A DNA stretch of 64,000 nucleotides from Candidatus Woesearchaeota archaeon (GCA_016784165.1 JADHVD010000003.1:6867-70866); one strand, 5' to 3'; positions 1 to 53,461 are shown, counted from the stretch's first letter. The notes: generated from the letters alone by a model not told the origin. Numbers and translations: made by a program.

Positions 1-154
1 TTTCCCTTATAAATTTAACATAATCTTTATTTTCAGCATAATCAGAAAGAATAAAAGAAATCGCTTTGTCTATACTCTTGATATCTTTGACTGCTTTAAT
101 TACATTAATTATCCTAATCTCTTCTTTGCTTAATTCTATAGTATGTTTTGGCAT
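1..154 (-). CDS. Partial small ORF. The start codon is at 152-154 and the ORF runs off the window edge. Possibly a small archaeal antitoxin-like (DUF2683-type) protein.
   Basis: My own translation of the minus strand gives MPKHTIELSKEEIRIINVIKAVKDIKSIDKAISFILSDYAENKDY.... The pattern resembles small archaeal RHH/antitoxin-like proteins from memory only. Confidence 0.3.
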   Translation of the reverse strand, partial: MPKHTIELSKEEIRIINVIKAVKDIKSIDKAISFILSDYAENKDYVKFIRE

Positions 155-237
155 TATAGTAAATTACTACTAATTAAAGTTTTATAACATTTTTAATAGT
201 ATTTTACTATTAATACTATATAAACCTTTCTAAAAAC

Positions 238-3200: not shown

Positions 3201-3834
3201 TATTAACAATAACATTCTCAGTAATATTAACACTAACATTAACAGTCACATTCTCAAGACTTATGTTTTCTATAGTTACTCCTTCTATGACTTCCTCAAC
3301 CACAGAAGCATTTTCTTCAACAACACCCACATTCTCAATAACTTTCAGAGTTTCATTAATACTGATATTTTCAGTAATATTAGTACTCACATTAATAGTC
3401 ACATTCTCCACACTTACAGCCATACTCACATTTTCAGTAATATTTTCAATACTCAAATTATCTAAACTAATATTGATTTCACCCACATTAATAGAAACAT
3501 CTTCAATAGAAACATTCTCCAAACTTATATTTTCAACACTTTCACTTTCAGTAATAGTAGTTACTACTTCTTCAGCCAAAGAGACATTTTCTTCAACATC
3601 AATTACACTAACAGAAACATTATCAATAATCTCTCCAACACTAGCATTGCCCAAACTTAAATTATCTAAACTAACATTTTCTAAAATTAGATTATCTAAA
3701 CTATTATTTCCAGCAACTAATCCAGTTATCAAAGGTTGAGTGAATGTAAGAACTAATGCTAATAGGATAATAATTCCTGCCCCCATTAATTCACCATACC
3801 CTTTCTTGTTCCAAACTCTTTTTTCCAAACTCAT
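238..3834 (-). CDS. Giant (1198 aa) membrane-anchored or secreted surface protein with right-handed parallel beta-helix repeats
   Basis: There is an N-terminal hydrophobic anchor (GAGIIILLALVLTFTQPLITGLVAG). A long array of ENVS/NIS/NIT short repeats follows. Beta-helix-like repeats are present (NCEITDFTYGIYY, ILIDSNTVRDIG, NNIIYDISGSGIYVEG). C-terminal repeats include GNMFIRGVL, GNLYLVGEL and GNLKLKGTL. N-x-S/T sequon density is very high. Confidence 0.85.
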   Translation of the reverse strand: MSLEKRVWNKKGYGELMGAGIIILLALVLTFTQPLITGLVAGNNSLDNLILENVSLDNLSLGNASVGEIIDNVSVSVIDVEENVSLAEEVVTTITESESVENISLENVSIEDVSINVGEINISLDNLSIENITENVSMAVSVENVTINVSTNITENISINETLKVIENVGVVEENASVVEEVIEGVTIENISLENVTVNVSVNITENVIVNITENVIVNITENVTVNVSVEEKMIGRVMINRPVKFIKKVKLTAPKKNLIVELPKNASNIEVKKITGRIEKDISDKVVVKKGEEVEELSEHNLITGGAVTEVGDGLLFELFNWLKSLFRFTGYVVAEDIGNETELIVEEVVDEIEIEYELPGPTAVEEELGNGLKRIVVSSEIHYEDILAYTFIPESAVESVNLYWIVDGKRESVNFDGYDTTDDGLVDYVEWIVPHLSNQTYEIEINVLNPIEYLRDGDTWTVMFNTTGTANLSISSNNSYWEEIMIDNGGSVDEMRFVDLKCGDDSLLDVLKIISGDGYVYDYSSIGSDDSIKPVGFLIEDYSCSEIGRFVNHMNIAGYATLIFEFSNQEMTVTDFAYDPSHTYDSCSNITVSGTHEMNASINYYNDTELCFNINASDVVFDCAGYHIDGEYNTNYVDTFTAINIDNVTNVTVKNCEITDFTYGIYYDDGSDDGYVFNNSIHLVDSNYTVAGIGSDTADNILIDSNTVRDIGDGEVGSVGISVSGGIGNNVTNNIIYDISGSGIYVEGSGHIVEDNYINDTQSGDIFAAIQLDNCDDSVISSNELIGTGGCDNCNNYGIMLDASSNNNITENIIRNPTDNFVYLHSSSIGNRIDNQLFNLTQLGAGVILASACENNTLYNLTIHNSYLDGIEFSDGSNNNNVTDVEIKYNNYSGVSFDDSYNNSFYDVLVTDNQDAGVYFLNSSGNRFIDSTFDDNSLFWGDYADVWIEGTSAGANTFVNVSFNESATLFYYSGSGVLYVNWYLDVYVNDSNGDVGGANVSAWNVNGDLGFSVLSGGDGWIVKQNISEYYENCSSCDWVVGVKNYLTNYTMNTTKSGYDVDSQGVNITSNSILYVTMSLLIPTSNKFAITNSSDNIVGSIDDTGNMFIRGVLSDNQGSLNPGANSFILQDNAGTNIAYVSNTGNLYLVGELTENAVMSVSGTALKFVNASDSLIAFFDNSGNLKLKGTLAQSYGNP

Positions 3835-6800
3835 TTCTTAACATTCCTCAAAGTTTCATAAAGTAAAACAGCAATCATTTCTTTATCTTTTTCATTCCTC
3901 AAAGTTTCAGCAAGCTCGCTTTCCCTAAAGACATAATGAATCCATTCAGCAATATCATTTTTACTCCAGTTCACATACCCAGTGAATTCTTCTTTACACA
4001 TATTCATTAGTTCAAACACCATTGCTTCAATATTTCTAATTTCTCTGCCGTCTTTCAGTACAAAACCACTACCTTCTGGAGCATCTTTCAGCAGTAAACT
4101 CAACTCTCTTTCAATTTTCTTTTTTTCTGGAATAGCAACAACAACTCTTGATAACCCATGGGATAGCAGCATACTTACAACAATAATCATTAAAACAACA
4201 AAATAGCTGAACAGCGCAACACCTTTTTTCTCTCCACCAATTTGATTGAACATATACGCTTTACCTGTTAAATCTTCCTTCTTAGATTCATCCGAAGATG
4301 ATTCTTCTCCATCACCTTCTACATTAATTTTTTCTTCCTCACTCACTTCTTCTTCTTCTATAATTTCAACCAAACCAACAGCAGGAACTTTCTGCACCAT
4401 TTCTAAAATTACAACATCTTCCACGATACTTTCTAATTTTAAATTAAATTCATTAACCCTATCCCTATTCACATCAAATCCAACACTTTCACCTAATCTA
4501 ATTGTTGCAGTTTTATCATCCACCAAAACATTAACAGAATTTTCATTAACACCATTTAATTCAATTTCAATAACCTCAGCCGAAAAAGCATCAACCATAT
4601 CTTTAATAGCATCCAAAATCAAAACCCCTTCTCTTACATACAGCACACCATCTTCCATCACCCATTTATTTAATTCTATTAATCTCATAACCATTAAGTT
4701 CAATTCAATAGTATCTCCAACCTCAAGAGATTGCTCAACACGACCAATAGTATCACCCGATCCTCCATTAAGTAATCTATCCAGCGCTTCTTCCATTACA
4801 ATTTTAAACAATTCTCCCATATCAACTCCACTATACTCAAAACCAAGATAACCCATTTCGATTTCATAAATTACAGGTTCTCTGATACTAATCCCCTCAT
4901 CAGTTGTTGTTGTTGGGGTACTCTCAGTTTCTTCTTCGGTTTCAGCAACATAATCACCAACACTATAATTAGTAAACCCAGTAACACTAAAGAAATAATC
5001 ATCCTCAACATTACTAATATTTCCACAGAATCCGCCACAATCAGCACTATTCCTATAAGGTACAGCACTTCCACTAATCGAAACATTATAAAAGCTCAAA
5101 TTAGCAGATTTATTAAGCCCACTGAACATACTTGAATTTACAAAGATGTTGTTTTCTGTAATATCCAACCCACTTCCAAAGTAGAGAGTTCCATTTTCAG
5201 TAATATCTAAATCTGGACTTCCCCACATAATCTCCCCATAACTATTGTTGTATATCAAAAAATTATCATCACTAGGAAAATCATCTATAATTTTGTTATC
5301 TGAAGCAGTCAGATTATTATTAATAAATAAATTATTTTCTGATTCCCCTTGGATGTGAAGTGTAACCCTATTGGCTGTTGCAATATTATCTTTTACATTA
5401 TTATTTGTAGCAGATGCTAAATGAATTGCATACTTATTTGCTGTAAAAGTATTATTTATAACCGTGTTATTGTGTGAATCAGAATATAAAGAGAGAGCAT
5501 ATTCTCCAGATTCTGCCGTGTTATTTATAATAGTGTTATTTAATCCAGAATATATATGGATACCCAAAAGAAATTTAACATAAACAGCATTATTTTCAAT
5601 CAACCCATTAGATGAATTATAATAATAAACCCCATTAGCACTTCCAACCCCGCTTAAATTAATATCACAGTTCTTCACAGTAACATTATCTTGACCATTA
5701 ACATAAACCCCATAACTACCATTTCCTTGTATCGTTCTGCCACCACAATCAAACACAACATCATCCTCAGTTATATTTAGGATATAATTATTTTCACAGC
5801 CAATAATATCATAACTCAGATTTGTTGATTCATTTATTGTTTGACCACATCCCCCTTCTAAAGTAAATTCAAGTCCAGTATTATCTGTCAAATTAACACT
5901 GCTCACCCCAGTGATATAATTCTGTTTTGATGCATTTATCGTATAATTGGTCCAATAGCTCTTTCCAGCTGAGTTTTGGACATATTCAGTAATATTCTGT
6001 CTTGCTGTCCACCCAGAGCTGTTAGTCAGCACACTAAACACCTGACTGCCGTTAGTCTGCCACCCAGTTATATTCACCCCACTAAGATCACTCCCTTCGC
6101 TATTATTCACATAAACATCTAAGTACCATTGTATATGAAGATTTCCCCCCCCAAGTCCAAAGCTAACATCACTTTGGTTAAAACTCATATTCCTAAAATA
6201 AACATTATTAGTACTATATTCTGAACTTATAGAAATATCATCACCATTTGGAGCAATTATTTCAGAATCAATAAAATAATTCACATCGTTTCCTGTACTA
6301 TATACACTAATACCTGTATGATTTGTTGAGTTAATATACTCATTTCTAAAAGTATTATTCCCACTATTACTCATTTGAATCCCAAAACCCCCACTTGTTG
6401 TTATTGTGTTGTTCAGGAGAGTGTTTGAATCAGAATTAACTAGAAGTATCCCGTGCCCAGCTGTTTCACTTGTGTTTATTATATTGTTTGTTACATTTGA
6501 ATCAGAAGATGAAGAAAAGTATATTCCACGCCCATATGCTCCACTAATAGTTATATTATTATTTTCTATTGTTCCATCATCAGCACCCACAAAGTAAATC
6601 CCATGTTTACTATTAGTTGTTACATTCCCTTCTAAAATATTACAGTTTTTAATAGTTACATTATCATAACCGCCAGAATTATTTATTCCATAACCTAACA
6701 CTCCTGCAGTAGAATAATTAATAGTATACCCTGCACAGTCTAATATTATATCATCTGCTCCAATAGTTATTACAGTTCCATCACAAGTTAAATCTTCTTC

Positions 6801-7979
6801 TAATGTTGTTGATTCTGTTATTTCTTGATTACATGGATTTTGACCAACACTATAAGTGGTAAACCCAGTAACACTAAAGAAATAATCATCCCCAACATTA
6901 CTAATATTTCCACAGAATCCGCCACAATCAGCACTATTCCTATAAGGTACAGCACTTCCACTAATCGAAACATTATAAAAGCTCAAATTAGCAGATTTAT
7001 TTAACCCAGAATTACTAACAGAATCAACTTCAATTAAATTAGCACTAATCTGAACATCAGCACTTAGGTTTGTTCCGGTTCCATTGATTGGTTCTGTAAA
7101 TCTTATTTCTCCTTCATCTGTGTCTTTGAAATAAATTATTCCTCCACTTCCAGCAATAGAATAATTAGTAATAACTTGATCAATTAGATAAGTACCATTA
7201 ATACCTGCATCAACTATGTTTAAATCATAATCTGCTATATTACTGAATGTGTTATTAGTAAAACTATTATTTTCTGGATAATTTGACCCCGATGAATCTA
7301 ATCTTACCCCATCTCTACCTGATTGAGCAATATTATTATTTTGGAATAAGTTGTTATCTGAATCCTTATATATCCATACTGCATCTGCATCTATTTGTGT
7401 TGTATTTATTATGTTTTCTGAAATGTTTGAGTTTGAGCTTGAAGTAAGCTGGATCCCAAATCCATAAATTCCAGAAGTTGTGATTGTGTTTTCTGAAATA
7501 TTTGAACTTGATGAAGTTAAATATATCCCAGAACCTTTGACTCCATTGTTCGTGATTGTATTATTTTGTATTGTTCCATCATCAGCACCCTCAAAGTAAA
7601 TCCCATGTTTATAATTAGTTGTTGAATTCCCTTCTACAATATTACAATTCTTAATAGTTACATTATCATAACCACCAGAATTATTTATTCCATAACCTAA
7701 CACTCCTGCAGTGGAATAGTTGATTGTATATCCTGCACAGTCTAATACAACATTTGAAGCATTAATGATAATTCCAGTACCATTACAACTCATATCTCCA
7801 CTAAGTATAGAATCCTCATTAACATAACTACCACAATCAGAGCTGTCATTAAACACAACATAACCAGTGATATTATCTCCAAATCCGATTGAATAAAACA
7901 CACCAATAATTGAAACAGCAAGCAGAGTAAACACTAATAATTTCAAGTTCTCTTTCCAGCTCATCTGTTCATCTATCAT
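3831..7979 (-). CDS. Giant (1382 aa) surface protein with duplicated parallel beta-helix modules, a Thr-rich linker, a C-terminal TM helix and a roughly 105-aa cytoplasmic tail
   Basis: The N-terminal anchor is LKLLVFTLLAVSIIGVFYSIGF. The block CAGYTINYSTAGVLGYGINNSGGYDNVTIKNCNI occurs twice, as does LNKSANLSFYNVSISGSAVPYRNSADCGGFCGNISNV. The linker is ETEEETESTPTTTTDEG and the TM helix is ALFSYFVVLMIIVVSMLLSHGL. The ORF overlaps the downstream ORF by 4 nt. Confidence 0.85.
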   Translation of the reverse strand: MIDEQMSWKENLKLLVFTLLAVSIIGVFYSIGFGDNITGYVVFNDSSDCGSYVNEDSILSGDMSCNGTGIIINASNVVLDCAGYTINYSTAGVLGYGINNSGGYDNVTIKNCNIVEGNSTTNYKHGIYFEGADDGTIQNNTITNNGVKGSGIYLTSSSSNISENTITTSGIYGFGIQLTSSSNSNISENIINTTQIDADAVWIYKDSDNNLFQNNNIAQSGRDGVRLDSSGSNYPENNSFTNNTFSNIADYDLNIVDAGINGTYLIDQVITNYSIAGSGGIIYFKDTDEGEIRFTEPINGTGTNLSADVQISANLIEVDSVSNSGLNKSANLSFYNVSISGSAVPYRNSADCGGFCGNISNVGDDYFFSVTGFTTYSVGQNPCNQEITESTTLEEDLTCDGTVITIGADDIILDCAGYTINYSTAGVLGYGINNSGGYDNVTIKNCNILEGNVTTNSKHGIYFVGADDGTIENNNITISGAYGRGIYFSSSSDSNVTNNIINTSETAGHGILLVNSDSNTLLNNTITTSGGFGIQMSNSGNNTFRNEYINSTNHTGISVYSTGNDVNYFIDSEIIAPNGDDISISSEYSTNNVYFRNMSFNQSDVSFGLGGGNLHIQWYLDVYVNNSEGSDLSGVNITGWQTNGSQVFSVLTNSSGWTARQNITEYVQNSAGKSYWTNYTINASKQNYITGVSSVNLTDNTGLEFTLEGGCGQTINESTNLSYDIIGCENNYILNITEDDVVFDCGGRTIQGNGSYGVYVNGQDNVTVKNCDINLSGVGSANGVYYYNSSNGLIENNAVYVKFLLGIHIYSGLNNTIINNTAESGEYALSLYSDSHNNTVINNTFTANKYAIHLASATNNNVKDNIATANRVTLHIQGESENNLFINNNLTASDNKIIDDFPSDDNFLIYNNSYGEIMWGSPDLDITENGTLYFGSGLDITENNIFVNSSMFSGLNKSANLSFYNVSISGSAVPYRNSADCGGFCGNISNVEDDYFFSVTGFTNYSVGDYVAETEEETESTPTTTTDEGISIREPVIYEIEMGYLGFEYSGVDMGELFKIVMEEALDRLLNGGSGDTIGRVEQSLEVGDTIELNLMVMRLIELNKWVMEDGVLYVREGVLILDAIKDMVDAFSAEVIEIELNGVNENSVNVLVDDKTATIRLGESVGFDVNRDRVNEFNLKLESIVEDVVILEMVQKVPAVGLVEIIEEEEVSEEEKINVEGDGEESSSDESKKEDLTGKAYMFNQIGGEKKGVALFSYFVVLMIIVVSMLLSHGLSRVVVAIPEKKKIERELSLLLKDAPEGSGFVLKDGREIRNIEAMVFELMNMCKEEFTGYVNWSKNDIAEWIHYVFRESELAETLRNEKDKEMIAVLLYETLRNVKK

Positions 7980-8407
7980 CTCTTTTTACCACCTTTTTTA
8001 TCTACACCACGTTTCTTCTTAGCCCTATTATAACAAGTCCAAACAGTCCTATCATTCCTACCCAAAAGCACAGCCATTTCGTGATAACTAAATCCCTTTT
8101 CATCTTTTAGATACTCAGTAATCGCTTCTAACACACTAACTTCTCTATCCAAAAATACAGAACTCGGCACACACTCTCCGCCTTCAGCAGCTAAAACATG
8201 CTTTGGCCGTTTTTTCTTAGCCCTATTATAACAAGTCCAGATTGTTCTATCATCCCTGTTTAACAGCACAGCTATCTCATGATAACTCATTCCTTTCTCG
8301 TCCATAAAATATTCAGAAACAGCTTCTAAGACGCTAATACTTCTATCTAAAAATACCGATAAAGGTATAAGAACTACACTCTCCACTTTAATTTTAGCTA
8401 AAACCAA
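7976..8407 (-). CDS. Small DNA-binding protein made of two tandem HTH modules (sigma-70 region 4 / LuxR-like). It is the first gene of the surface-protein operon.
   Basis: An internal duplication is visible: SVFLDRSISVLEAVSEYFMDEKGMSYHEIAVLLNRDDRTIWTCYNRAKKKR versus SVFLDREVSVLEAITEYLKDEKGFSYHEMAVLLGRNDRTVWTCYNRAKKKR. The track start is a TTG codon and a GTG at 8384-8386 is an alternative, so the start is uncertain. Confidence 0.7.
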   Translation of the reverse strand: MVLAKIKVESVVLIPLSVFLDRSISVLEAVSEYFMDEKGMSYHEIAVLLNRDDRTIWTCYNRAKKKRPKHVLAAEGGECVPSSVFLDREVSVLEAITEYLKDEKGFSYHEMAVLLGRNDRTVWTCYNRAKKKRGVDKKGGKKR

Positions 8408-8425
8408 TACTTACAATGTAAGTAT
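8403..8425. promoter_or_regulatory. Candidate operator, copy 1 of a 23-bp repeat. It contains the perfect palindrome ATACTTACA-A-TGTAAGTAT (8407-8425).
   Basis: The site lies between a TATA-like TATTTAAAT (about 8431-8439) and the start of the HTH gene, and it overlaps the called start codon. Confidence 0.45.
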
Positions 8426-8473
8426 TATATTATTTAAATGTTTTGGTCAGAACTCACGAAAATACACAAAAAG

Positions 8474-8496
8474 ACCAATACTCACAATGTAGGTAT
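8474..8496. promoter_or_regulatory. Candidate operator, copy 2 of the 23-bp repeat (ACCAATACTCACAATGTAGGTAT), a degenerate palindrome
   Basis: It is 21/23 identical to copy 1 and lies 71 bp away, in the divergent intergenic region between the HTH gene and the DUF368 gene. Confidence 0.4.
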
Positions 8497-8573
8497 AACT
8501 AATTTATAAGGTTTTCGGTAAAAAACAATAAAAACAACAAACTTTTTAATAAACAACAACTCTCAACTAAATT

Positions 8574-9419
8574 ATGAAAAACCTAAAAGAGTATTTCTTA
8601 ACTTTTCTCAGAGGAATTTTCATGGGTACAGCTGATGCCATACCAGGAGTTTCAGGTGGTACAATAGCCTTAATCACAGGAATCTACGAAAGATTAATTT
8701 ACGCAATTAATAATATAAACACCCTAATCATAAAAGAATTATTCCAATTAAACATAAAAAAAGCATTCAAAAACACAAAAAAGCTCGACTTCAAATTATT
8801 TATTCCGCTTGCATTGGGAATCATAATAGCATTATTTACTTTCGCCCACATTATCAGTTATCTCTTAAAAAACCAAACAGCAATAACATATGCATTTTTC
8901 TTTGGCCTAATCCTTTCTTCAGCTTTCTTCGTGTACAAACATACACATAACAATCACCTAAAAAACATACCATCATTACTAATAGGAATTCTTTTAGCAA
9001 TTCTTATCACTGGATTAACAAAAACAGCAACAGCTCACACAAACATCATAATTTTTCTTTCAGGCGTAATTGCAATCTGTGCAATGATTTTGCCAGGAAT
9101 ATCAGGAGCATTCATACTTGTACTTTTAAATCAGTATGAATTCATCTTAAACCTAATAAAAACACTCCAGATAAACAAACTCTTGATTTTTGCATTGGGG
9201 GCAATAATTGGTATCCTCTCTTTTTCAAAATTAATCTCTTACCTCTTGAAAAAACACAAAAAACAAACAATGGCATTATTAACAGGGCTCATGCTCGGCT
9301 CATTAAGAATTCCTTTTTACAAGATAACTACAACATACACTAACATCTGGACAACAATAATCTCGGCAATAATAGGATTCACAATAGTATTCATTTTAGA
9401 AAAAAAATTCACTTCTTAA
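8574..9419 (+). CDS. DUF368-family polytopic membrane protein (candidate polyprenyl-phosphate recycling transporter)
   Basis: The N-terminal motif GTADAIPGVSGGTIALITGIYERL and a second PGISGAFILVLL repeat are typical of DUF368. The protein has multiple TM helices. Confidence 0.75.
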   Translation: MKNLKEYFLTFLRGIFMGTADAIPGVSGGTIALITGIYERLIYAINNINTLIIKELFQLNIKKAFKNTKKLDFKLFIPLALGIIIALFTFAHIISYLLKNQTAITYAFFFGLILSSAFFVYKHTHNNHLKNIPSLLIGILLAILITGLTKTATAHTNIIIFLSGVIAICAMILPGISGAFILVLLNQYEFILNLIKTLQINKLLIFALGAIIGILSFSKLISYLLKKHKKQTMALLTGLMLGSLRIPFYKITTTYTNIWTTIISAIIGFTIVFILEKKFTS

Positions 9420-14114: not shown

Positions 14115-14561
14115 ATGAAGTTAGAGATAATTAAACAAGAAAAACAACCACTATTATCTAGAATAGAAATCATGGCTAAAATAACTTTTCAAGGTGCAAC
14201 TCCTTCAAACGAAAATATAAAAAAAGCAATAGCCACAAAATTAAAAGCAGACGAATCTTTTACAGTTATTAAACATATTTATACCGAATTTGGTTTACAA
14301 GAAGGAGATGTTGAAGCATTTGTTTATGACGATAAAAAAGTAATGGCAGTTCTTGAGAAAAAAGCAAAAAAACAAAAAGAAAAAGAAGCAAAAATAGCAG
14401 AAAAAGCAAAAACAGCACCTGCAGAACAACCTAAGGAAGAACAACCTAAGGAAGAACAACCTAAGGAAGAACAACCTAAGGAAGAACAACCTAAGGAAGA
14501 ACAACCTAAGGAAGAACAACCTAAGGAAGAACAACCTAAGGAAGAAAAAAAAGATAACTAA
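14115..14561 (+). CDS. rps24e: Ribosomal protein S24e with a C-terminal (EQPKE)x8 extension
   Basis: The N-terminal core MKLEIIKQEKQPLLSRIEI...FGLQEGDVEAFVYDD fits S24e, as does synteny. The tail is a low-complexity repeat. Confidence 0.8.
   Translation: MKLEIIKQEKQPLLSRIEIMAKITFQGATPSNENIKKAIATKLKADESFTVIKHIYTEFGLQEGDVEAFVYDDKKVMAVLEKKAKKQKEKEAKIAEKAKTAPAEQPKEEQPKEEQPKEEQPKEEQPKEEQPKEEQPKEEQPKEEKKDN
14424..14543. repeat. Eight perfect tandem copies of the 15-bp unit GAACAACCTAAGGAA inside rps24e
   Basis: Read directly; it encodes the EQPKE repeats. Confidence 0.95.
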
Positions 14562-14566
14562 TAAAA

Positions 14567-14881
14567 ATGGCAGAACAACAAGCAAAACCAAAATCAAGAA
14601 AACACAGTGAAAGATGGAATCATTATAGTAATTCATCTGGAACTTTAACTCGTAATAAAAGATTTTGTCCAAAATGTGGGCCTGGTTATTTTATGGCAGA
14701 CCATAAAAATAGAATTACTTGTGGAAAATGTAGTTATGTTGAATTTAAAGGTAAAGAACCAGAAAAACAAGAAGAAAAACCTTCTCAAGATTCTCCAAAA
14801 CAAGAAGAATCAGACCAAACCACAAAAGAAAAACAATCTGAAGAAACAAAATCAGAAGAACCAGAACCTAAAAAAGAATAA
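14567..14881 (+). CDS. rps27ae: Ribosomal protein S27ae with a Lys/Glu-rich C-terminal extension
   Basis: The zinc ribbon CPKCGPGYFMADHKNRITCGKC is present, and synteny after S24e fits. Confidence 0.8.
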   Translation: MAEQQAKPKSRKHSERWNHYSNSSGTLTRNKRFCPKCGPGYFMADHKNRITCGKCSYVEFKGKEPEKQEEKPSQDSPKQEESDQTTKEKQSEETKSEEPEPKKE

Positions 14882-15884: not shown

Positions 15885-16196
15885 TTACCCAAATAAAGCT
15901 CCTAATCCTTCTGCTGCTTGTTCTTCATTCACTTCTTCTTTCTTTTCTTCAGCTTTAGGTGCTTCTTCACTTTTTGCTTCTCCGCTTGCTTCTGCTGCTG
16001 GAGCTGCTGCAACTGGAGCTACTACTGCTTCTTTCAATACCTTCTCGACATCTACGCCTTTCAGAGCATTGACAACAACAGTAACTTTTGCTTTGTCTGC
16101 TTTAACTCCTGCCGCATCCAACACTTTAGTAAGATTAGCTTCATTAATCTCACTTCCTGCTTTGTGCAAAAGCATTGCTGCATACATATATTCCAT
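15885..16196 (-). CDS. rpl12: Ribosomal stalk protein P1 (L12e)
   Basis: The N-terminus is MEYMYAAMLLHKAGSEINEANLTKVL. It has an Ala/Glu hinge and the conserved terminal EGLGALFG. A GGAGG-like Shine-Dalgarno lies upstream. Confidence 0.9.
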   Translation of the reverse strand: MEYMYAAMLLHKAGSEINEANLTKVLDAAGVKADKAKVTVVVNALKGVDVEKVLKEAVVAPVAAAPAAEASGEAKSEEAPKAEEKKEEVNEEQAAEGLGALFG

Positions 16197-16225
16197 GTTT
16201 CTTACCTCCGAACTTTAGTGAGGTT

Positions 16226-16272
16226 GTAAAAAACCTTGAAGACGAATTAAATGAGTCTCCTTGTTTTTTTAC
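16226..16272. repeat. Intergenic hairpin family, copy a (between P0 and P1)
   Basis: The sequence is GTAAAAAAC-CTTG-AAGAC-GAATTAAATGA-GTCTC-CTTG-TTTTTTTAC. It has an outer stem of 8-9 bp, an inner stem, and a CTTG/CTTG self-pairing box. Confidence 0.6.
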
Positions 16273-16309
16273 CCCTCATATATCTTTTTAATTAAATTAT
16301 GAACTTTAG

Positions 16310-17491
16310 TTATTCTTCTTTTTTGCTCTGTTCTACAGAGTCTTCTTCACTTGGCTTTTCTTCAGGTTTAGAATCATCAGCCGATTCCCCCTCAACTTTT
16401 TCAGGTTTGTTTTCAGTTTCAGGTTCTTCTTTAGGTGATTCTTCTTTCTTCTCTTCTTCTTCATTCACTTCTTCTTTCTTCTCTTCAGCTTTAGGTGTTT
16501 CTTCTTTACTTATTTCTTTATCTGCCTTAGACTCATCATTTTTTACATTATCTTCACTTTCAGCTACTTTCTCTTCTTGTTTCTCTTCAGCAGGTGTTTC
16601 TTCTTGTTTTGGAGAATCTTGGGGTGCTGGAGCATCTTCAGGAACTTTTCCTTTCAGTTTCATCGCACCATTTTCAGCTTTTTTCAGAATATCTTCACTA
16701 GTTTCATCAGTTAATATCTCTTGTTCTAAAGCCAAAGTACGTGCTTCACCATGAATCTTAGGTAACACAATAGCTATAACTTCTTCAATAGGATAACTTA
16801 ATTCAACAGCAAGCGTAAATGCTTCACTGTGAGCTGATTTCATATCATTGATATAAGCTTCTTCATCAATATCTAATATATCTTTAGTTAGGATGTCTCC
16901 ATTTTCATAAACAGCAACTAATTCAAGACCAATTTCAACAGGTTTTACTCCAAGTCGAGATAAGATTCCAGCAACATTTGCTTTTACTTCTTCACCTTCT
17001 TTAACAACAACTTTATTTTCAATTATGTTGATTTTATTATCTTCAACCTTTGTTTTTAACCCCATAGCACCCAATTCACCAATGATTGGTCCTGGTGCAA
17101 AAGGTGTTGGTCCAGCTTTAAGAGAAAGATCGCAAGGAGCTATTTGTCCAGCTTTTGCAGGAGCAAATGATTTATTTTTCTTTAAAGTTTTGAATAATTC
17201 AAAAGGATCTTGTTTAGTAAATAATAAAGCAGGCATACCTTTCAGGTGTTCTATTAATTTTATAACTCCCTTTTTATCTTCTTGTGTTTTTTCAAATGCT
17301 AACTTCATTAATCTTTTTTTAGTCATGGTTAGCACAACATTCTCTCTTAATTTTGCACTTATTTTTTGTAATTGGCTTGCAGGAAGATTCTCCATATTCA
17401 CAACACCAATTATAGGATTTTCCTTAATTAATTTAACAAGATTAGCTACAACTTTTTTCTTAGCTTCTGAAACATGGGCTTTTGGATTCAT
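16310..17491 (-). CDS. rplP0: Ribosomal stalk protein P0 (uL10) with a roughly 110-aa acidic low-complexity tail
   Basis: The N-terminus is MNPKAHVSEAKKKVVANLVKLIKENPIIGVVNMENLPASQLQ. It overlaps rpl1 by 4 nt in the L1-P0-P1 order. The tail ends in SVEQSKKEE and has no GLGALFG. Confidence 0.85.
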   Translation of the reverse strand: MNPKAHVSEAKKKVVANLVKLIKENPIIGVVNMENLPASQLQKISAKLRENVVLTMTKKRLMKLAFEKTQEDKKGVIKLIEHLKGMPALLFTKQDPFELFKTLKKNKSFAPAKAGQIAPCDLSLKAGPTPFAPGPIIGELGAMGLKTKVEDNKINIIENKVVVKEGEEVKANVAGILSRLGVKPVEIGLELVAVYENGDILTKDILDIDEEAYINDMKSAHSEAFTLAVELSYPIEEVIAIVLPKIHGEARTLALEQEILTDETSEDILKKAENGAMKLKGKVPEDAPAPQDSPKQEETPAEEKQEEKVAESEDNVKNDESKADKEISKEETPKAEEKKEEVNEEEEKKEESPKEEPETENKPEKVEGESADDSKPEEKPSEEDSVEQSKKEE

Positions 17492-28879: not shown

Positions 28880-29556
28880 GATTTGTCACCATCACCTTTT
28901 TTAGATTCTTCTTCGCTTTCTTTTTTTGAAAGTGTTGAAGAATCTTTTTTAGATTCTTCTTCGCTTTCTTTTTCTGAAGATACTGAAGAATCTTTTTTAG
29001 ATTCTTCTTCGCTTTCTTTTTCTGAAGATACTGAAGAATCTTTTTTAGATTCTTCTTCGGATTTTTCTTCAGGTTTATTTTCAGACTTTTCTTTTTCAAC
29101 TGGTTCGTCTTTTTCTTTCTTAGAATCCTTTCCTACTTTCTCTTCAGCTTTTTCTTTAGAGTCTTCTCCTTCTTTAGGTGTTTCAGCTGTTACACCTAAT
29201 TTAACTTTACCATATTTTATAATTTTAAGATTAATTTGACTTATATTTCTACCAATTGTATGGCCTCTTACATTCTTCCTTTGTCTTTGTCCTTTTCTTT
29301 TTATTTTAGCACCTACTCCAGAAATAACTAATATTCTTTTTCTTTCAGTACCATTAACATCTTTCCTCATTGGAAATCCACAGCTATCACTACCACCAGT
29401 AATTTCAAACTCATAACCATTCAATCCAAAAGAGTCACCCTTAATTTTTTCTCCTAACTTTTTACCTAAGAAGACTTCTGCTTCAGCATCTTTTGCTTCA
29501 CGCTGATAACATTTGCCGGTCTTAGGGTCAGCTAAAACTAATTTATAATCTGTCAT
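28876..29556 (-). CDS. rps6e: Ribosomal protein S6e with a roughly 95-aa Ser/Lys/Glu-rich repetitive tail
   Basis: The core is MTDYKLVLADPKTGKCYQ...GGSDSCGFPMRKDV...RKNVRGHTIG. I chose the start at 29554-29556 because a GGAGG lies 8 nt upstream; the track ORF starts 15 nt earlier. Confidence 0.85.
   Translation of the reverse strand: MTDYKLVLADPKTGKCYQREAKDAEAEVFLGKKLGEKIKGDSFGLNGYEFEITGGSDSCGFPMRKDVNGTERKRILVISGVGAKIKRKGQRQRKNVRGHTIGRNISQINLKIIKYGKVKLGVTAETPKEGEDSKEKAEEKVGKDSKKEKDEPVEKEKSENKPEEKSEEESKKDSSVSSEKESEEESKKDSSVSSEKESEEESKKDSSTLSKKESEEESKKGDGDKS
28897..29059. repeat. Roughly 3.4 tandem copies of a 48-bp unit inside rps6e (encoding KDSSVSSEKESEEESK)
   Basis: Read directly: units at 28897-28944, 28945-28992 and 28993-29040, and a partial unit at 29041-29059. 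Confidence 0.9.
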
Positions 29557-45222: not shown

Positions 45223-45561
45223 ATGGTAAGAAAACACAAGAAAAAACCAGCATCACATAGAAAAATAGTGTTAGAAAGAATCCAAATCCTATTTGAGCAA
45301 GCTCAAGAGAATTTCTCGTTAGATCCTAAACTTTCAGATCGTTATGTTCAGCTTGCAAGAAAATTAACAATGAAATATAAAGTGAAGATGCCTTCAGAAT
45401 ATAAAAGACAATACTGCAAATATTGTTACAGCTACTTAATGCCAAACAAAACATGCAGGATAAGAACTCATAAGGGTCATTTAGTGTACTATTGTCTTAA
45501 ATGTAAAAAGTTCAATAGATTTACTTATAAAACCGGAAAGTCTACGACTAAAAAAGAATAA
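45223..45561 (+). CDS. rnp4: RNase P protein component 4 (Rpp21/Rpr2 family)
   Basis: A helical N-terminus (RIQILFEQAQENF, RYVQLARKLTMKY) is followed by the zinc ribbon CKYCYSYL...YYCLKCKKF. Confidence 0.8.
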   Translation: MVRKHKKKPASHRKIVLERIQILFEQAQENFSLDPKLSDRYVQLARKLTMKYKVKMPSEYKRQYCKYCYSYLMPNKTCRIRTHKGHLVYYCLKCKKFNRFTYKTGKSTTKKE

Positions 45562-45712
45562 ATTTAAATATCACTAATAACTTCTAAATTTTTGTGAATT
45601 ACTATGAGAGTTACAACAATTAACAATTGCCAACCATATTAGGCGATACTCTCTTGATTTTTAATTTTTTATTTCTTTCTAAATCTTCAGAGAACCTAAA
45701 TGAAAACCTAAA

Positions 45713-46915
45713 ATGTCCACTAAAAAAATAACAAAGGAACGAGAAAAAAAACTTAAACAGAACATCTGGAAGTTTTACATATATAGATTCTTCTCTAGTA
45801 TGATCTTTGTAATTCCCATATTTGTATTATTCTTACAAGATAATGGACTTAGCATGACTCAAGTAATGATTTTACAAGCAGTTTATACTGCAGTAATCAT
45901 GCTAGCAGTAATACCCTCAGGGATATTTGCAGATTATATGGGGAGAAAGACAGCATTAGTGATAAATTCTATATTTTTCACTTTGGGTTGGACTCTTTAT
46001 GCATTGAGTTACTCCTTTTTTGCATTCTTGATAACTGAGATAGTTATGGCTATATCTGCTGCTTTGTGGAACTCTTCAGGAACAGCATTCTTTTACGACA
46101 CATTAAAAGAATTAAAACAAGAAAGCAAGTTTAAACGCCTTTATGGGAATACAATGACTATCAGCCACATAGTGTGGGGATTATCTGCATTAATAGGAGG
46201 GTACTTAGCAACATATAGTTTAAGACTTCCTTATTTTGCAGTAATACCTCCAGTGTTTTTATCAATTTTAGTAACATTAAGTTTTACAGAAACCAAGAAA
46301 TATAAACACGGAGATAAGCATTACATCACCCACCTAAAAGATGCAGCAAAATTTAGCATAACCCACCCAAAAGTGAAATTTTTCATAATCTATGCAGCGC
46401 TATTTGGGGCAGTATTTTTCAACGCATTCATGGTTTATCAGCCATATCTAAAACAGATACAGGTACCATTAATTTATTTTGGAGTGATATTCATGTTCAT
46501 GGATTTCACAGCTGCATTTGCATCAAAAATAGCTCATAAGGTAGAAGAATTTTTTGGAGAAAAAAAAATACTCCTAATAATGTTAGCTTTAGCCATATTT
46601 GCTTATGCAGGTATGAGTTTTAGCATACTTTATTTTGGAGCAGCATTCCTATTGATAACCTCTTTCGTTGGAGGGTTAAAATACCCAATTATAATGGATT
46701 ATATTAACAAGCATGTAAGTTCTCATCACAGAGCAACAGTTATGGCTTTTTCAGACTTATCTGGGAGCATGCTCTGTACATTGTCAGCCCCCTTTATAGG
46801 CTGGCTAATTGATTTTTGGGGATTGAGAGAAGCATTTTTGTTTTTTGTAGTGTTATTAGTACTAAACTTAGTCATACTATTATGGGTGTTCCACTTAAAT
46901 AATAATAGAAAATAG
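45713..46915 (+). CDS. MFS-type transporter
   Basis: It has about 12 TM helices and the loop motif ADYMGRKTAL between TM2 and TM3. Confidence 0.7.
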   Translation: MSTKKITKEREKKLKQNIWKFYIYRFFSSMIFVIPIFVLFLQDNGLSMTQVMILQAVYTAVIMLAVIPSGIFADYMGRKTALVINSIFFTLGWTLYALSYSFFAFLITEIVMAISAALWNSSGTAFFYDTLKELKQESKFKRLYGNTMTISHIVWGLSALIGGYLATYSLRLPYFAVIPPVFLSILVTLSFTETKKYKHGDKHYITHLKDAAKFSITHPKVKFFIIYAALFGAVFFNAFMVYQPYLKQIQVPLIYFGVIFMFMDFTAAFASKIAHKVEEFFGEKKILLIMLALAIFAYAGMSFSILYFGAAFLLITSFVGGLKYPIIMDYINKHVSSHHRATVMAFSDLSGSMLCTLSAPFIGWLIDFWGLREAFLFFVVLLVLNLVILLWVFHLNNNRK

Positions 46916-46938
46916 ATTAAGAAATAAATCAGAAAACT

Positions 46939-47082
46939 CTATTCACCAAGAACACCTTTACAATTGATACAGACTTCTTTATCTGTTTTTTTATCATATT
47001 TAGTGGTGATTCCCCACTGTAGAATATTATTACAGCTAGGGCATTTATCTTCATTCAAAATCTCAAACAAATTGAAAACCAT
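46939..47082 (-). CDS. Small (47 aa) zinc-ribbon ORF, below the track cut-off
   Basis: My own translation is MVFNLFEILNEDKCPSCNNILQWGITTKYDKKTDKEVCINCKGVLGE. Confidence 0.35.
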   Translation of the reverse strand: MVFNLFEILNEDKCPSCNNILQWGITTKYDKKTDKEVCINCKGVLGE

Positions 47083-47154
47083 TTTTTAATTAGTTTTTAT
47101 TAGAATATATCATCTAAAGGCAATTAACTATATAAAATTTACCTTAATAATGCT

Positions 47155-47204
47155 GATTAAATTGATATTTTGGATAAAATAGTTTTTAGTTATCCTACAC
47201 AGCA
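47155..47204. repeat. Left copy of the 50-bp direct repeat flanking the GGDEF cassette
   Basis: The sequence is GATTAAATTGATATTTTGGATAAAATAGTTTTTAGTTATCCTACACAGCA, 49/50 identical to 48863-48912. It contains the internal inverted repeat GGATAA...TTATCC. Confidence 0.95.
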
Positions 47205-47255
47205 ATTTTTAGTATATGGTAGAATAAACTTTTTTTTAATAAAATTTTATAAAAA

Positions 47256-48524
47256 TTATGAATTATAAATTCTTAATTGATTTCTTCCATTTGTTTTTGC
47301 TTTATATAGTGCTTCATCTGCTCTTTTTATGAAAATATCTGTTAGAAGATTCATTTTTAAGTCTTCATCATTTAATATATCTGTTAAATTTTTATTTATT
47401 TCTTTAGAATAAATTTCTGCTTGGTCTTTTATTGATTCTAATCCATATAAAATTTGCCCATTTTTTAATCCTGTAAATTTGGAATAAATTTCTAATAAAG
47501 GAATTATTTTTAATTTATTTTTAACATATTTATTTATTAATACTTGTCCTGATTTTCCTTTTAAAATTCTTATTTCTGGAACTTCAAAACTTGAAACAAC
47601 ACCTATGCTAGTGTTTATATTAACTTTTTCTTCTTTACCCGTATGTATATTTTTAAAATAAAAATTTGTTTTTGATAAGTTTATCCTATATTGATCTAAT
47701 TTATTAATTATTCCTTTATAAAATTTTGATGAATTGTCAAAGTTTGCAAAAGAAATAAGAAATTCTTCCCCTCCAAATCTACCATGCAAGTCCCGACTTC
47801 TAAAACTATTTTTACTTAATTCTGTTGTTTTTCTTAATACTTCATCTCCATTCAAGTGTCCATAATTGTCATTTATTCTTTTGAAGTGATCCAAATCATA
47901 CATTGTAAGAACTATTTCAGGAGTATTAGTTGCACGAAAATTTAATAAAGTTTCTAATTCATTTTTCAGTTTTTCTTTGAATGTTTTCTTCCTAAATAAT
48001 CCTGTTAATTCATCTATTCCTAAAAAATTATCATGATATTGGATTAATTTTCCAAAAGCAGGAATTATTTCTTCAATTTTTATTTTATCCACTTCAGTAA
48101 ATCCATTTTTTTTATTTAATAATTGTATCGCCCCAATTATATCTCCATTTGCTTTTATCGGGATTGTTAACATATTTTTTGTTTTATAACCAGTTTGGCT
48201 ATCAAATAATCCTAAATGATAGGGGTTTTTTTTAACTTCATTGCACAAATCAGTTTTTCCTTCTGTTATTACTTTTCCAACTATTCCTTGATTAATAGAT
48301 AATCTTTTTCCAACTAAACCCTCTTCCCCACCAATAACATCCTTAAAAATTAATTCATTACCTTCTTTTATAAATAAAGAAGCAGCATCTGCACCAGTCA
48401 TATCTTTACATTTTAAATTCATATATTTAATCAAATTCCTAATATCTGTATCAAGATAATCAAATAATTCCATTAATGTGGTTTTGGTATGATTTTCTAA
48501 ATTTAATTTATCCTCTATATTCAT
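47256..48524 (-). CDS. GAF-domain plus GGDEF-domain protein (predicted diguanylate cyclase) with a large insertion in the GGDEF domain
   Basis: The motifs are DELTGLFRKKTF, MYDLDHFKRINDNYGHLNGDEVL, the I-site RSRD, the active site RFGGEEF (47760-47774), TSIGVV and RADEALYKAKTNGRNQ. A TATA-like CTTTAAATAG lies about 26 nt upstream of the ATG. Confidence 0.85.
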   Translation of the reverse strand: MNIEDKLNLENHTKTTLMELFDYLDTDIRNLIKYMNLKCKDMTGADAASLFIKEGNELIFKDVIGGEEGLVGKRLSINQGIVGKVITEGKTDLCNEVKKNPYHLGLFDSQTGYKTKNMLTIPIKANGDIIGAIQLLNKKNGFTEVDKIKIEEIIPAFGKLIQYHDNFLGIDELTGLFRKKTFKEKLKNELETLLNFRATNTPEIVLTMYDLDHFKRINDNYGHLNGDEVLRKTTELSKNSFRSRDLHGRFGGEEFLISFANFDNSSKFYKGIINKLDQYRINLSKTNFYFKNIHTGKEEKVNINTSIGVVSSFEVPEIRILKGKSGQVLINKYVKNKLKIIPLLEIYSKFTGLKNGQILYGLESIKDQAEIYSKEINKNLTDILNDEDLKMNLLTDIFIKRADEALYKAKTNGRNQLRIYNS

Positions 48525-48862
48525 GTCGTTTCAGGATAAAATCACCCTATTTAAAGATTGTTGTTTTTTAAGTATTAAACATGCCGTATCTGGATTTGGC
48601 CCAATGCGTTCTCAAGTTAGAATTATGACAGGACTTGGCGGTTATGAACCTTGGAGAGACGAGTATGATTGTGGGCCTAGATGGAATATCAAAGGGTATA
48701 ATTCTTCAACAAAACGTTGATTTGGTGAGAAGTGTAAAATGCATAATAATAAAAATTGTCTTAAAGGGGCAAAACACAAGTTCATTAACAATAAAAGAAT
48801 AGTGAAATACGCAAGAAATTATATGATTGCTTGGACAAAGCTATTAAAGATATTGAATATTA

Positions 48863-48912
48863 GATTAAATTAATATTTTGGATAAAATAGTTTTTAGTTA
48901 TCCTACACAGCA
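48863..48912. repeat. Right copy of the 50-bp direct repeat flanking the GGDEF cassette
   Basis: The sequence is GATTAAATTAATATTTTGGATAAAATAGTTTTTAGTTATCCTACACAGCA. Confidence 0.95.
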
Positions 48913-49097
48913 CTTAATAAGGATATTTAATAGAAAAATACCCTTATTTAATTTAAATGATTAAAAAAATAAAAAATAAAAGTGAAAGGATCTGGCGGAC
49001 ATAAATCAAATCCTTCTTTTAGTTCATAAGCCAAATACTACATTAGAGAATATTTGCACCCGATAGTTTTTTATACCTCTTTTATTTTTCTTATCTT

Positions 49098-49346
49098 ATG
49101 AATTATGACCTCGAACTAGAAAAAGTGATAACTAAAATAAAAAAAGAAAAAGCTAAATTGGTGTGTATTCAACTTCCAGATGGATTAAAACCAAACGCAA
49201 AAGAGATAACAGACCTAATTCATAAAAAAACAAATGCACAAGCAGTGCTTTGGGCAGGATCATGTTTTGGAGCATGTGATACTCCAAATATAAAACATCT
49301 TGACTTTGACATGTTAATTCAGTTTGGTCACAGCGAATGGAGATAA
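49098..49346 (+). pseudogene. dph2: Truncated N-terminal fragment (82 aa) of the diphthamide synthesis radical-SAM enzyme Dph2
   Basis: The fragment AKLVCIQLPDGLKPNAKEI...CFGACDTPNIKHLDFDMLIQFGHS follows the N-terminal pattern of archaeal Dph2. It then stops, whereas the full-length enzyme is more than 300 aa from memory. Confidence 0.65.
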
Positions 49347-49364
49347 TCCAAAAACAAAAACCAT

Positions 49365-50030
49365 ATGAAAAACTCAATAAAAAAAGAGATATCAAAAAGA
49401 TTCAACTCATCTAAAAAAAGAATCAAATACGAATTTCATAAATGGAAAAATCAATTAATTATTGCAGATAAAGCGCTTTATATCATCATAGTTCTTTTAC
49501 TCGGATTACTTCGTCCAGATATTGTAATGATTGTTGTGTATTTTTCATTATATCCTTATCTTTTTTTAACCAAACGAAAAAAAGCAATCAACCACCTTTT
49601 AATCGCTTCCCTAGTGTCATTAGTATGGATGCTAATTGCAAATTCGCAATATGGATATAATCAAGAGATGTTATTAATTTTTGGTTTAAACTCTTATCCC
49701 CTTTTTACTTGGGCAGTAGGATTATTTGCAGCATACTTAATTTATTCTCACTGGGAATACCTCATAAAAAAACACAGTTTAATCAAAAAAATGATTCTTT
49801 TTGTGATTTTTTATTGGTTTTTATTAATTACAGTTGAAACAACAGCATACTACGGATTTGACATAAAAAATTTAGTAACAGCAAATTATGCCGGATTACC
49901 TTTTTGTAATTGTATTCATGCACCGATATGGATGCAGATTTCTTATCTTATGTTGGGTCCAATTTACTTTGGTATTTGTGAACTATTAGGTTTAGAAAAT
50001 CCACATTACACAAAAAAGAATCAAAAATAA
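49365..50030 (+). CDS. Membrane protein of unknown function
   Basis: The 221 aa contain about 6 hydrophobic helices. Confidence 0.5.
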   Translation: MKNSIKKEISKRFNSSKKRIKYEFHKWKNQLIIADKALYIIIVLLLGLLRPDIVMIVVYFSLYPYLFLTKRKKAINHLLIASLVSLVWMLIANSQYGYNQEMLLIFGLNSYPLFTWAVGLFAAYLIYSHWEYLIKKHSLIKKMILFVIFYWFLLITVETTAYYGFDIKNLVTANYAGLPFCNCIHAPIWMQISYLMLGPIYFGICELLGLENPHYTKKNQK

Positions 50031-53096: not shown

Positions 53097-53170
53097 GGGC
53101 CCGTAGCTTAGCCTGGTAGAGTGCTCGACTGATAATCGAGTGGTCCCGAGTTCAAATCTCGGCGGGCCCA
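53097..53170 (+). tRNA. tRNA-Ile (anticodon GAU); no encoded CCA
   Basis: The acceptor stem is GGGCCCG/CGGGCCC, the anticodon stem CTCGA/TCGAG with loop CTGATAA, and the T arm CCGAG-TTCAAAT-CTCGG. Confidence 0.9.
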
Positions 53171-53310
53171 CTTTCATAATTAACTCACATAAATATTAAT
53201 TAAAGAGATAAATCAAAGGAATTACAAAGTGATTAAATCAACAGAGTTGATTTACCTCGCTTCTGGGGGGCTACGACCCAAAACGTAGGTTCCAAATCTC
53301 GGCGGGCCCA
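53171..53310 (+). mobile_element. tRNA-Ile-linked mini-unit 1 (140 bp): a 48-bp conserved left end, a hairpin, a small stem-loop, then a 31-bp right end copying the tRNA-Ile 3-prime end
   Basis: The left end at 53171-53218 is identical to 53311-53358. The hairpin TAAATCAAC-AGA-GTTGATTTA is at 53234-53254. The right end AAAACGTAGGTTCCAAATCTCGGCGGGCCCA is at 53280-53310. Confidence 0.5.
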
Positions 53311-53461
53311 CTTTCATAATTAACTCACATAAATATTAATTAAAGAGATAAATCAAAGAGATAATTATGGGATGAGATATAACAAACGAAGTGAGTTATT
53401 ATCTCATACTAATTTCCGGAGCTACTACGGAAAACGTAGGTTCCAAATCTCGGCGGGCCCA
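53311..53461 (+). mobile_element. tRNA-Ile-linked mini-unit 2 (151 bp) with the same architecture and a different central hairpin
   Basis: The left end is at 53311-53358. The central hairpin is ATGAGATATAAC...GTTATTATCTCAT. The right end at 53431-53461 is identical to 53280-53310. Confidence 0.5.

Follow-up and report, generated by a model that had tools for sequence, protein, structure and literature searches.

We analysed a 64,000-nt stretch of DNA (the window; positions are counted from its first nucleotide), which the NCBI names of the same proteins assign to a Candidatus Woesearchaeota archaeon. The subject of this analysis is a gene in this window for a protein with GAF and GGDEF domains, together with the pair of 50-nt direct repeats, GATTAAATT[G/A]ATATTTTGGATAAAATAGTTTTTAGTTATCCTACACAGCA, that bound it and the 1762-bp unit, 47151-48912, to which gene and repeats belong. 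A preliminary description of this DNA, made from the sequence alone, had taken the repeats as possible signs of a site-specific insertion with att-like duplication, of a cassette able to loop out by recombination, or of a faulty assembly join. The features of the locus as we read them, with insertion sequence abbreviated to IS and target site duplication to TSD, are as follows:

46939-47082, minus strand: native flanking gene for a 47-aa zinc-ribbon protein; the block upstream of it is conserved in sister lineages.
47143-47150, no strand: left TSD copy, CTTAATAA; the same 8-mer stands directly after the right repeat, and the TSD of the related L034 IS is also 8 bp.
47151-47204, plus strand: IS remnant 1 (54 bp), TGCT plus the last 50 nt of the IS (the left repeat, 47155-47204); with TGCT next to the TSD and ...CAGCA at the other end it mirrors L034, and its interior would have been lost by internal deletion.
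47205-47255, minus strand: cargo DNA 3' of the GGDEF gene, rich in T on that strand by sequence reading; dissimilar to both the IS and the sister loci.
47256-48524, minus strand: GAF-GGDEF gene, 422 aa (Pfam, TIGR00254, PDB alignments, NCBI name).
48525-48588, minus strand: upstream region of the GGDEF gene (sequence reading) with a TATA-like box, CTATTTAAAG (plus strand, 48547-48556), 23-32 nt before the ATG, where the gene may have its own promoter.
48589-48912, plus strand: IS remnant 2 (~322 bp), comprising the 3' third of a transposase pseudogene (48589-48816), a 3' untranslated end and the right inverted repeat (phmmer, tblastn, blastn).
48863-48912, plus strand: right repeat, the last 50 nt of IS remnant 2 (alignment to the L034 IS end).
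48913-48920, no strand: right TSD copy, CTTAATAA (sequence identity to the left copy).
49098-49346, plus strand: native flanking gene, outside the element, for an 82-aa Dph2 N-terminal-domain protein (Pfam Diphthamide_syn 1e-11; TIGR00322 2.2e-21, 76.6 bits).

The two repeat copies lie on the same strand, 1708 nt apart, and are identical at 49 of 50 positions (the sole mismatch is the G/A at position 10), all of which agrees with what had been reported; the last 40 nt are exactly the same in both (47165-47204 = 48873-48912). With up to three mismatches allowed, the 50-mer occurs exactly twice in the window (0.00 copies are expected from shuffles), and the window-wide repeat scan found no further copy. 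A 17-nt terminal probe, with 3 mismatches, found no inverted copy of the IS end in the window. The 24-nt core of the repeat has 0 exact matches in the GTDB genomes and IMG/VR, and in the JGI metagenomes it matches only the organism's own contig.

The 338 nt between the GGDEF gene and the right repeat (48525-48862) had been described as about 340 bp of unassigned DNA; the length holds and the lack of an assignment does not. The codon-position G+C (guanine plus cytosine) content of this spacer and its nearly open frame point to a decayed coding sequence on the plus strand. Pfam and PHROGs searches of the spacer open reading frames (ORFs) gave no match, and the transposase fragment alone matches no model; its identity was revealed solely by an exhaustive phmmer search with the 65-aa spacer ORF against 1.84 billion representatives, which returned, besides the ORF itself, P0193 (5.6e-09), P0194 and P0195 and two further weak matches. 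By tblastn, residues 226-300 of P0195 (305 aa; E = 5e-19) and residues 144-219 of P0193 (E = 3e-22) both align to window positions 48589-48816, and the homologous stretch corresponds to the C-terminal 75-76 residues of these proteins; it is 5'-truncated and contains one in-frame TGA (48718-48720). P0195 is an NCBIfam NF033579 "IS5 family transposase" (206.5 bits vs a cut-off of 140), Pfam recognises DDE_Tnp_1 in both P0193 and P0195 and also DDE_Tnp_1_5 in the latter, and the nearest annotated plasmid relatives are labelled IS5-family transposases (for example that of a Sulfolobus islandicus plasmid, and the ISAba10-family elements in Acinetobacter). By these matches, what had been left unassigned is for the most part an IS5-family DDE transposase pseudogene, of which the 3' third is present. 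No other transposase fragment, and no intact transposase, was found in the 64-kb window by tblastn.

What, then, is the repeat at the end of this pseudogene? A full-length relative of the IS, 1228 bp long and frameshifted, is present in L034, a contig of 61 kb with a gene for a replication-factor-C-like protein; this IS has perfect 15-bp terminal inverted repeats (TIRs; TGCTCTGTCGGACAA/TTGTCCGACAGAGCA) and is flanked by an 8-bp TSD, GCTTCTCG. Window positions 48591-48912 are colinear with positions 895-1228 of the L034 IS (blastn, E = 4e-20), and the alignment ends on the last base of both the element and the right repeat. The last 17 nt of the repeat match the L034 right inverted repeat at 14 of 17 positions (AGTTATCCTACACAGCA vs AGTTGTCCGACAGAGCA; counted by hand). 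A second relative, the IS derivative L033, has 14-bp TIRs (TACTCTGTCGGACT/AGTCCGACAGAGTA), and its last 50 nt align with the 50-mer free of gaps, with a common terminal ...CNACANAG.A and a common GATTAAA at the inner edge; its flanks, read from the sequence, contain a TSD-like match of 7/8 that lies within a T-run. Unitig L031 has a 3' end, ...GCAACAAAGCA, that follows this terminal pattern as well (L031 was also considered as a source of both IS ends and was rejected, as only its 3' end is terminal). These alignments identify the repeat as the last 50 nt of an IS5-family IS, consisting of terminal inverted repeat plus subterminal sequence, and the right boundary of the repeat as the IS terminus.

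As a separate observation, the two 5'-truncated derivatives of this IS group (window 48591 and L033 position 423), which are independent of one another, begin within ~8 nt of each other, at L034 IS positions 887-895, and in both of them foreign DNA stands in place of the IS interior. This shared breakpoint could be a hot spot, a result of selection or chance; there are two cases only.

The whole 1762-bp unit is bracketed by the 8-bp direct duplication CTTAATAA (47143-47150 and 48913-48920), and it starts with TGCT(G) and ends with (C)AGCA like the termini of the L034 IS. The empirical probability of such a flank match within 4 nt by chance is 3e-4 over the whole window and ~1e-3 in low-G+C DNA, and the TGCT start of the unit adds to the case. 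We conclude from the sequence comparison that CTTAATAA is a real target duplication, whose length matches that of the TSD in this IS group. An IRL-like sequence (one resembling a left inverted repeat), TGCCGTATCTGGAT (48583-48596), at the left edge of IS remnant 2 was tried as an element end and dropped, given its weak resemblance and the absence of a matching TSD.

Three sister lineages, recovered through the neighbouring major facilitator superfamily (MFS) and zinc-ribbon proteins, show what the locus looks like without this unit. L025 has 93% (left flank) and 89% (right flank) nucleotide identity to the window and an intergenic region of 112 nt; L004 and L017-L021 have ~84% nucleotide identity and 194 nt; L022/L023, whose MFS protein is 60% identical, have ~95 nt. 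The zinc-ribbon gene (or a remnant of it) faces the 82-aa Dph2-like gene across this short intergenic region in all three, and none of L004 and L017-L025 contains the GGDEF gene, the spacer with its transposase fragment or the 50-mer (no match to the last beyond chance). BLAST homology between the sister loci and the window stops at ~47147-47149 and resumes at 49062, and once 47151-48920 is taken out, the remaining intergenic region can be aligned over its full length with those of L025, L004 and L022. This comparison establishes the segment as an insertion for which the sister lineages carry empty sites, so the earlier suggestion of an insertion was borne out. The truncation of dph2, which had been offered as a sign of local rearrangement, was not: the Dph2-like ORF is exactly 82 aa in four lineages, including those that have no insertion, and it is therefore a conserved small gene rather than a sign of recent rearrangement. 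The 82-aa protein corresponds to the N-terminal ~80 residues of Dph2 (in L004, L017-L023 and L025 as well as in the window), and it appears to be a stand-alone mini-Dph2, not a fresh truncation. We also observed that the window lineage (48921-49062) and L004 (11424-11525) each have a block of two hairpins at the same position between the divergent promoters; those of L004 are strong (z = -4.9 and -2.7), and L025 and L022 have no such block. Homology between the right-hand 150 nt in the window and the L004 hairpin block was considered and discarded, as the correspondence is positional only and the sequences are dissimilar.

Repeats of ~50 bp are close in size to assembler k-mers, and the preliminary description had warned that the arrangement might be a mis-join, in which case the real state would be an empty site plus a separate circle. 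That worry is answered by the independent assemblies that show the same arrangement, both repeats and the same G/A difference included: ENA ERZ24794647 NODE_2039 (78 kb, coverage 86), ERZ24794644 NODE_30777 (11.4 kb, from a second ENA sample), and the 4.4-kb metagenome-assembled genome (MAG) contig JACNHR010000035.1 of NCBI GCA_014383515.1, which differs from the window at 30 positions; JACKQG010026140.1, a JGI-held record that matches the NCBI MAG contig, has it too, and the GGDEF protein is also present on another NCBI record (MBL7050773.1, on an 81-kb contig). In at least 5 read sets the Logan k=31 unitigs do break exactly 30 nt into the 40-mer (unitig L003 covers 47175-48902, the left-flank unitigs stop at 47194 and the right-flank ones begin at 48883), and the k=31 graph alone is ambiguous; a real 40-nt repeat is expected to behave in just this way, and none of the Logan unitigs runs straight from left flank to right flank, so no empty-site allele was seen among them. 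Both junctions are held on single contigs with SPAdes-style names from two samples and on the unrelated NCBI MAG contig (30 single-nucleotide polymorphisms, SNPs), the exact repeat of only 40 nt is below ordinary read length, and the TSD and the logic of IS insertion demand the integrated form. A mis-join at the repeats is thus very unlikely, and an artefact as the explanation of the whole locus is hardly credible at all. Apart from this, the NCBI MAG contig (L002) has 1 mismatched position relative to the window over 45262-49486 and then 29 SNPs over its final 214 nt (window 49487-49700); this cluster is either a strain recombination boundary or a chimeric contig end.

Taken together, two copies of an IS right end (both remnants) flank a passenger, a TSD surrounds the entire unit, and the unit is cleanly absent from relatives. 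The unit 47151-48912 is most probably the relic of an IS-flanked, compound-type transposon, in which the direct repeats are the same-orientation right ends of two copies of an IS5-family IS. Its history would have been as follows: IS copy 1, a 1.38-kb passenger (the GAF-GGDEF gene with its own promoter) and IS copy 2 would have been inserted as a single unit in the DNA that separates the divergent promoters of the zinc-ribbon and mini-Dph2 genes, with duplication of the 8 bp of target CTTAATAA. For transposition, copy 1 would have supplied its outer left end and copy 2 its right end; since nothing more of copy 2 is needed, its 5' part may have been missing even then. An internal deletion would later have reduced copy 1 to its first 4-5 nt and last 50 nt. 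The present layout is TSD, remnant 1, 51 nt, GGDEF gene, 64 nt, remnant 2 (IS positions ~895-1228) and TSD. The unit is now immobile, because there is no transposase in the 64-kb window and no usable left end. An intact IS of this kind would be expected to have the left end TGCTGTGTAGGATAAC, the right end GTTATCCTACACAGCA, a length of ~1.2 kb and an 8-bp TSD. The only activity still expected of the repeats is rare homologous recombination across the two 40-nt identical stretches; a single repeat, without the GGDEF gene, would be its product. The resulting deletion allele would join ...AATAATGCTGATTAAATTG...CACAGCA to CTTAATAAGG, and the circular form would join ...GAATATTAGATTAAATTA...CACAGCA to ATTTTTAGTA. 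Loop-out of the cassette by recombination between the 40-nt stretches, as the preliminary description proposed, is possible; nothing in its support was seen.

Several points weigh against a compound transposon. The closest full-length relative, L034, is only ~62% identical in DNA; this exact IS was not found in intact form, and the 24-nt repeat core has no other exact match in the GTDB genomes, IMG/VR and the JGI metagenomes. The left inverted repeat is reduced to TGCT(G), 4-5 nt at 47151-47155, and from these few surviving nucleotides an intact copy 1 has to be supposed; the flank repeat CTTAATAA is AT-rich. There is, moreover, one end state to reason from, so the order of events is beyond reconstruction. 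A different order of IS-mediated events would have a single IS inserted at CTTAATAA, a circle carrying the GGDEF gene and a partial IS (similar to a translocatable unit) recombining homologously with it in the shared 3' end, and a later deletion in copy 1. Direct IS repeats around the cargo, the 8-bp TSD and the TGCT start are equally expected from such a history, and the sharp edge of the left repeat, set beside a right copy that runs on into transposase homology, agrees with it. Against it, at least three events are needed, and neither a circular form nor a resident solo IS was found in any sample or relative examined; we hold it to be rather unlikely. The present sequence cannot distinguish this circle integration from insertion as a compound transposon; both are IS-mediated, and neither involves an att-type recombinase.

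An att-type recombinase is what the earlier suggestion of att-like duplication would require, with the 50-mers as attL and attR left when a tyrosine or serine recombinase integrated a small circular cassette, or as an integron-like boundary. Long, near-perfect direct repeats that bound a single gene absent from relatives are indeed what such an event would leave. That suggestion fails against the locus itself, which makes it highly improbable: no sister lineage has a single 50-mer copy at its empty site, the genes called within +/-10 kb have no recorded match to an integrase or recombinase family (in the cassette itself there are just the GGDEF gene and the transposase fragment), the repeat belongs to no tRNA and no tRNA lies at either copy, and the 50-mer is the end of an IS whose true TSD, the 8-bp CTTAATAA, lies outside the repeats. 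Reading of the 50-mer on both strands found no attC cores (RYYYAAC/GTTRRRY), and no attC covariance model was run. Could the repeat instead be a duplicated regulatory or terminator hairpin of the host, with no link to mobile DNA? The small inverted repeat that had been noted inside it, GGATAA-N12-TTATCC (6-bp stem, 12-nt loop), is there (47172-47195 and again 48880-48903, within the IS end), and the repeat is intergenic on both sides of the GGDEF gene. Its stability is, however, no better than that of shuffled sequence (as DNA, -2.5 kcal/mol, z = -0.68; 42 of 200 shuffles fold equally well or better), and the hairpin is weak and thermodynamically unremarkable. Rfam gave no match to the 338-nt spacer plus repeat at gathering thresholds or at E<=10, and a structured RNA in the spacer or the repeat was rejected on this ground and on folding z-scores of +0.73 and +0.65. 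As the 50-mer is in addition absent from every relative and homologous to IS termini, a host hairpin is an extremely improbable explanation.

The cargo of the putative compound transposon is, by motif and domain criteria, a GGDEF diguanylate cyclase, and cyclase activity is predicted for it. Pfam recognises GGDEF (1.5e-26, 93.6 bits vs a threshold of 23.8) and GAF_2 (2.3e-07), TIGR00254 matches at 2e-32 (112 bits vs 37.4), and the protein has a GGEEF motif with an RxxD I-site (RSRD) five residues upstream; its NCBI name is 'sensor domain-containing diguanylate cyclase [Candidatus Woesearchaeota archaeon]'. Solved structures in the PDB align over residues 170-265 and 396-417. Between these two ranges the cyclase domain has an insertion of ~85 residues (protein residues ~265-396), located between the GGEEF strand and the C-terminal helix, which the aligned solved cyclases do not have. 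The G+C content of the gene is slightly lower than that of the window (24% vs 31%). Attempts to trace a donor found no homologue of more than 36% identity among 5.8 billion clustered proteins; P0003, one of the nearest homologues, has an archaeal gene neighbourhood that includes Hjc, OapB/OapC and an EF-G/EF-2-type elongation factor.

GGDEF domains are described as nearly absent from archaea. Whether the bacterial-type signalling genes of archaeal MAGs are genuine or come from contamination was a question raised by a census of 2018 (PMC5847659); a paper of 2021 reported many unverified BLAST matches in Asgard and DPANN genomes (PMC8646023). In the present case the GGDEF gene is physically integrated in a Woesearchaeota chromosome, with native syntenic flanks, three sister lineages with empty sites and an identified vehicle. 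This settles authenticity for this one archaeal GGDEF gene and provides a record of gene gain by way of an IS in a DPANN archaeon with a reduced genome. The interest of the locus is modest and comes from host and cargo; the repeat itself is an ordinary IS end and does not represent a new recombination system. One could go further and propose that the gene is a working cyclase shuttled by IS5-family elements among DPANN archaea, which would give some Woesearchaeota a c-di-GMP signal, and that the breakpoint shared at ~887-895 of 1228 is a specific cargo-capturing property of this IS group; we consider this combined proposal unlikely.

Elsewhere in the window, the 3' end of a tRNA-Ile gene (CAAATCTCGGCGGGCCCA) recurs twice downstream of the gene, at 53293 and 53444 (window 53097-53461), with a spacing of 140/151 nt and each time after a T-arm-like stretch; in the sister lineages there are two such copies in L025 and one in L004/L017. 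These repeats, 4 kb from the GGDEF unit, look like stacked att-type integration scars and are a true att candidate. The window also contains long, internally repetitive coding regions (1-9000, 14393-14572, 15900-16520 and 28896-29118) with 12- to 48-nt periodic repeats, and duplicated segments of 166 and 288 nt at 4956/6843 and 6508/7510.

How does the unit compare with known systems? With IS5-family elements of the NF033579 type, of which L034 is the nearest full-length example, it shares a homologous transposase fragment, the terminus ...GTYCNACANAGCA-3' and an 8-bp TSD as in L034; it differs in that copy 2 retains only the last ~27% of the element and copy 1 the last ~4%, and in that no active copy was found. 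Elements that duplicate an att site (for example at tRNA genes) and integron cassettes likewise have direct repeats that bound a foreign segment, whereas here there is no recombinase, no att copy at the empty sites, no tRNA overlap and no attC core. IS26-type pseudo-compound transposons and translocatable units integrate beside an existing IS without making a new TSD. They resemble the present unit in having direct IS copies around one cargo segment, and for both one can conceive of an intermediate circle made up of one IS and the cargo; IS26 belongs to the IS6 family, whereas the present IS is an IS5-family one and the unit as a whole is enclosed by an 8-bp TSD. Tn9 (IS1-cat-IS1) is a compound transposon with directly repeated IS copies. 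Our unit differs from Tn9-type transposons in that both of its IS copies are wrecked (54 bp and ~322 bp), with no transposase and 4-5 nt of outer left end, in its IS family (IS5) and in its DPANN host; it resembles them in having IS copies of the same orientation around a passenger gene, an IS-type TSD around the unit and a cargo that can be deleted by recombination between the IS copies. The mechanism is in this sense an ordinary one, that of the IS ends of a decayed compound transposon with a slightly unusual cargo.

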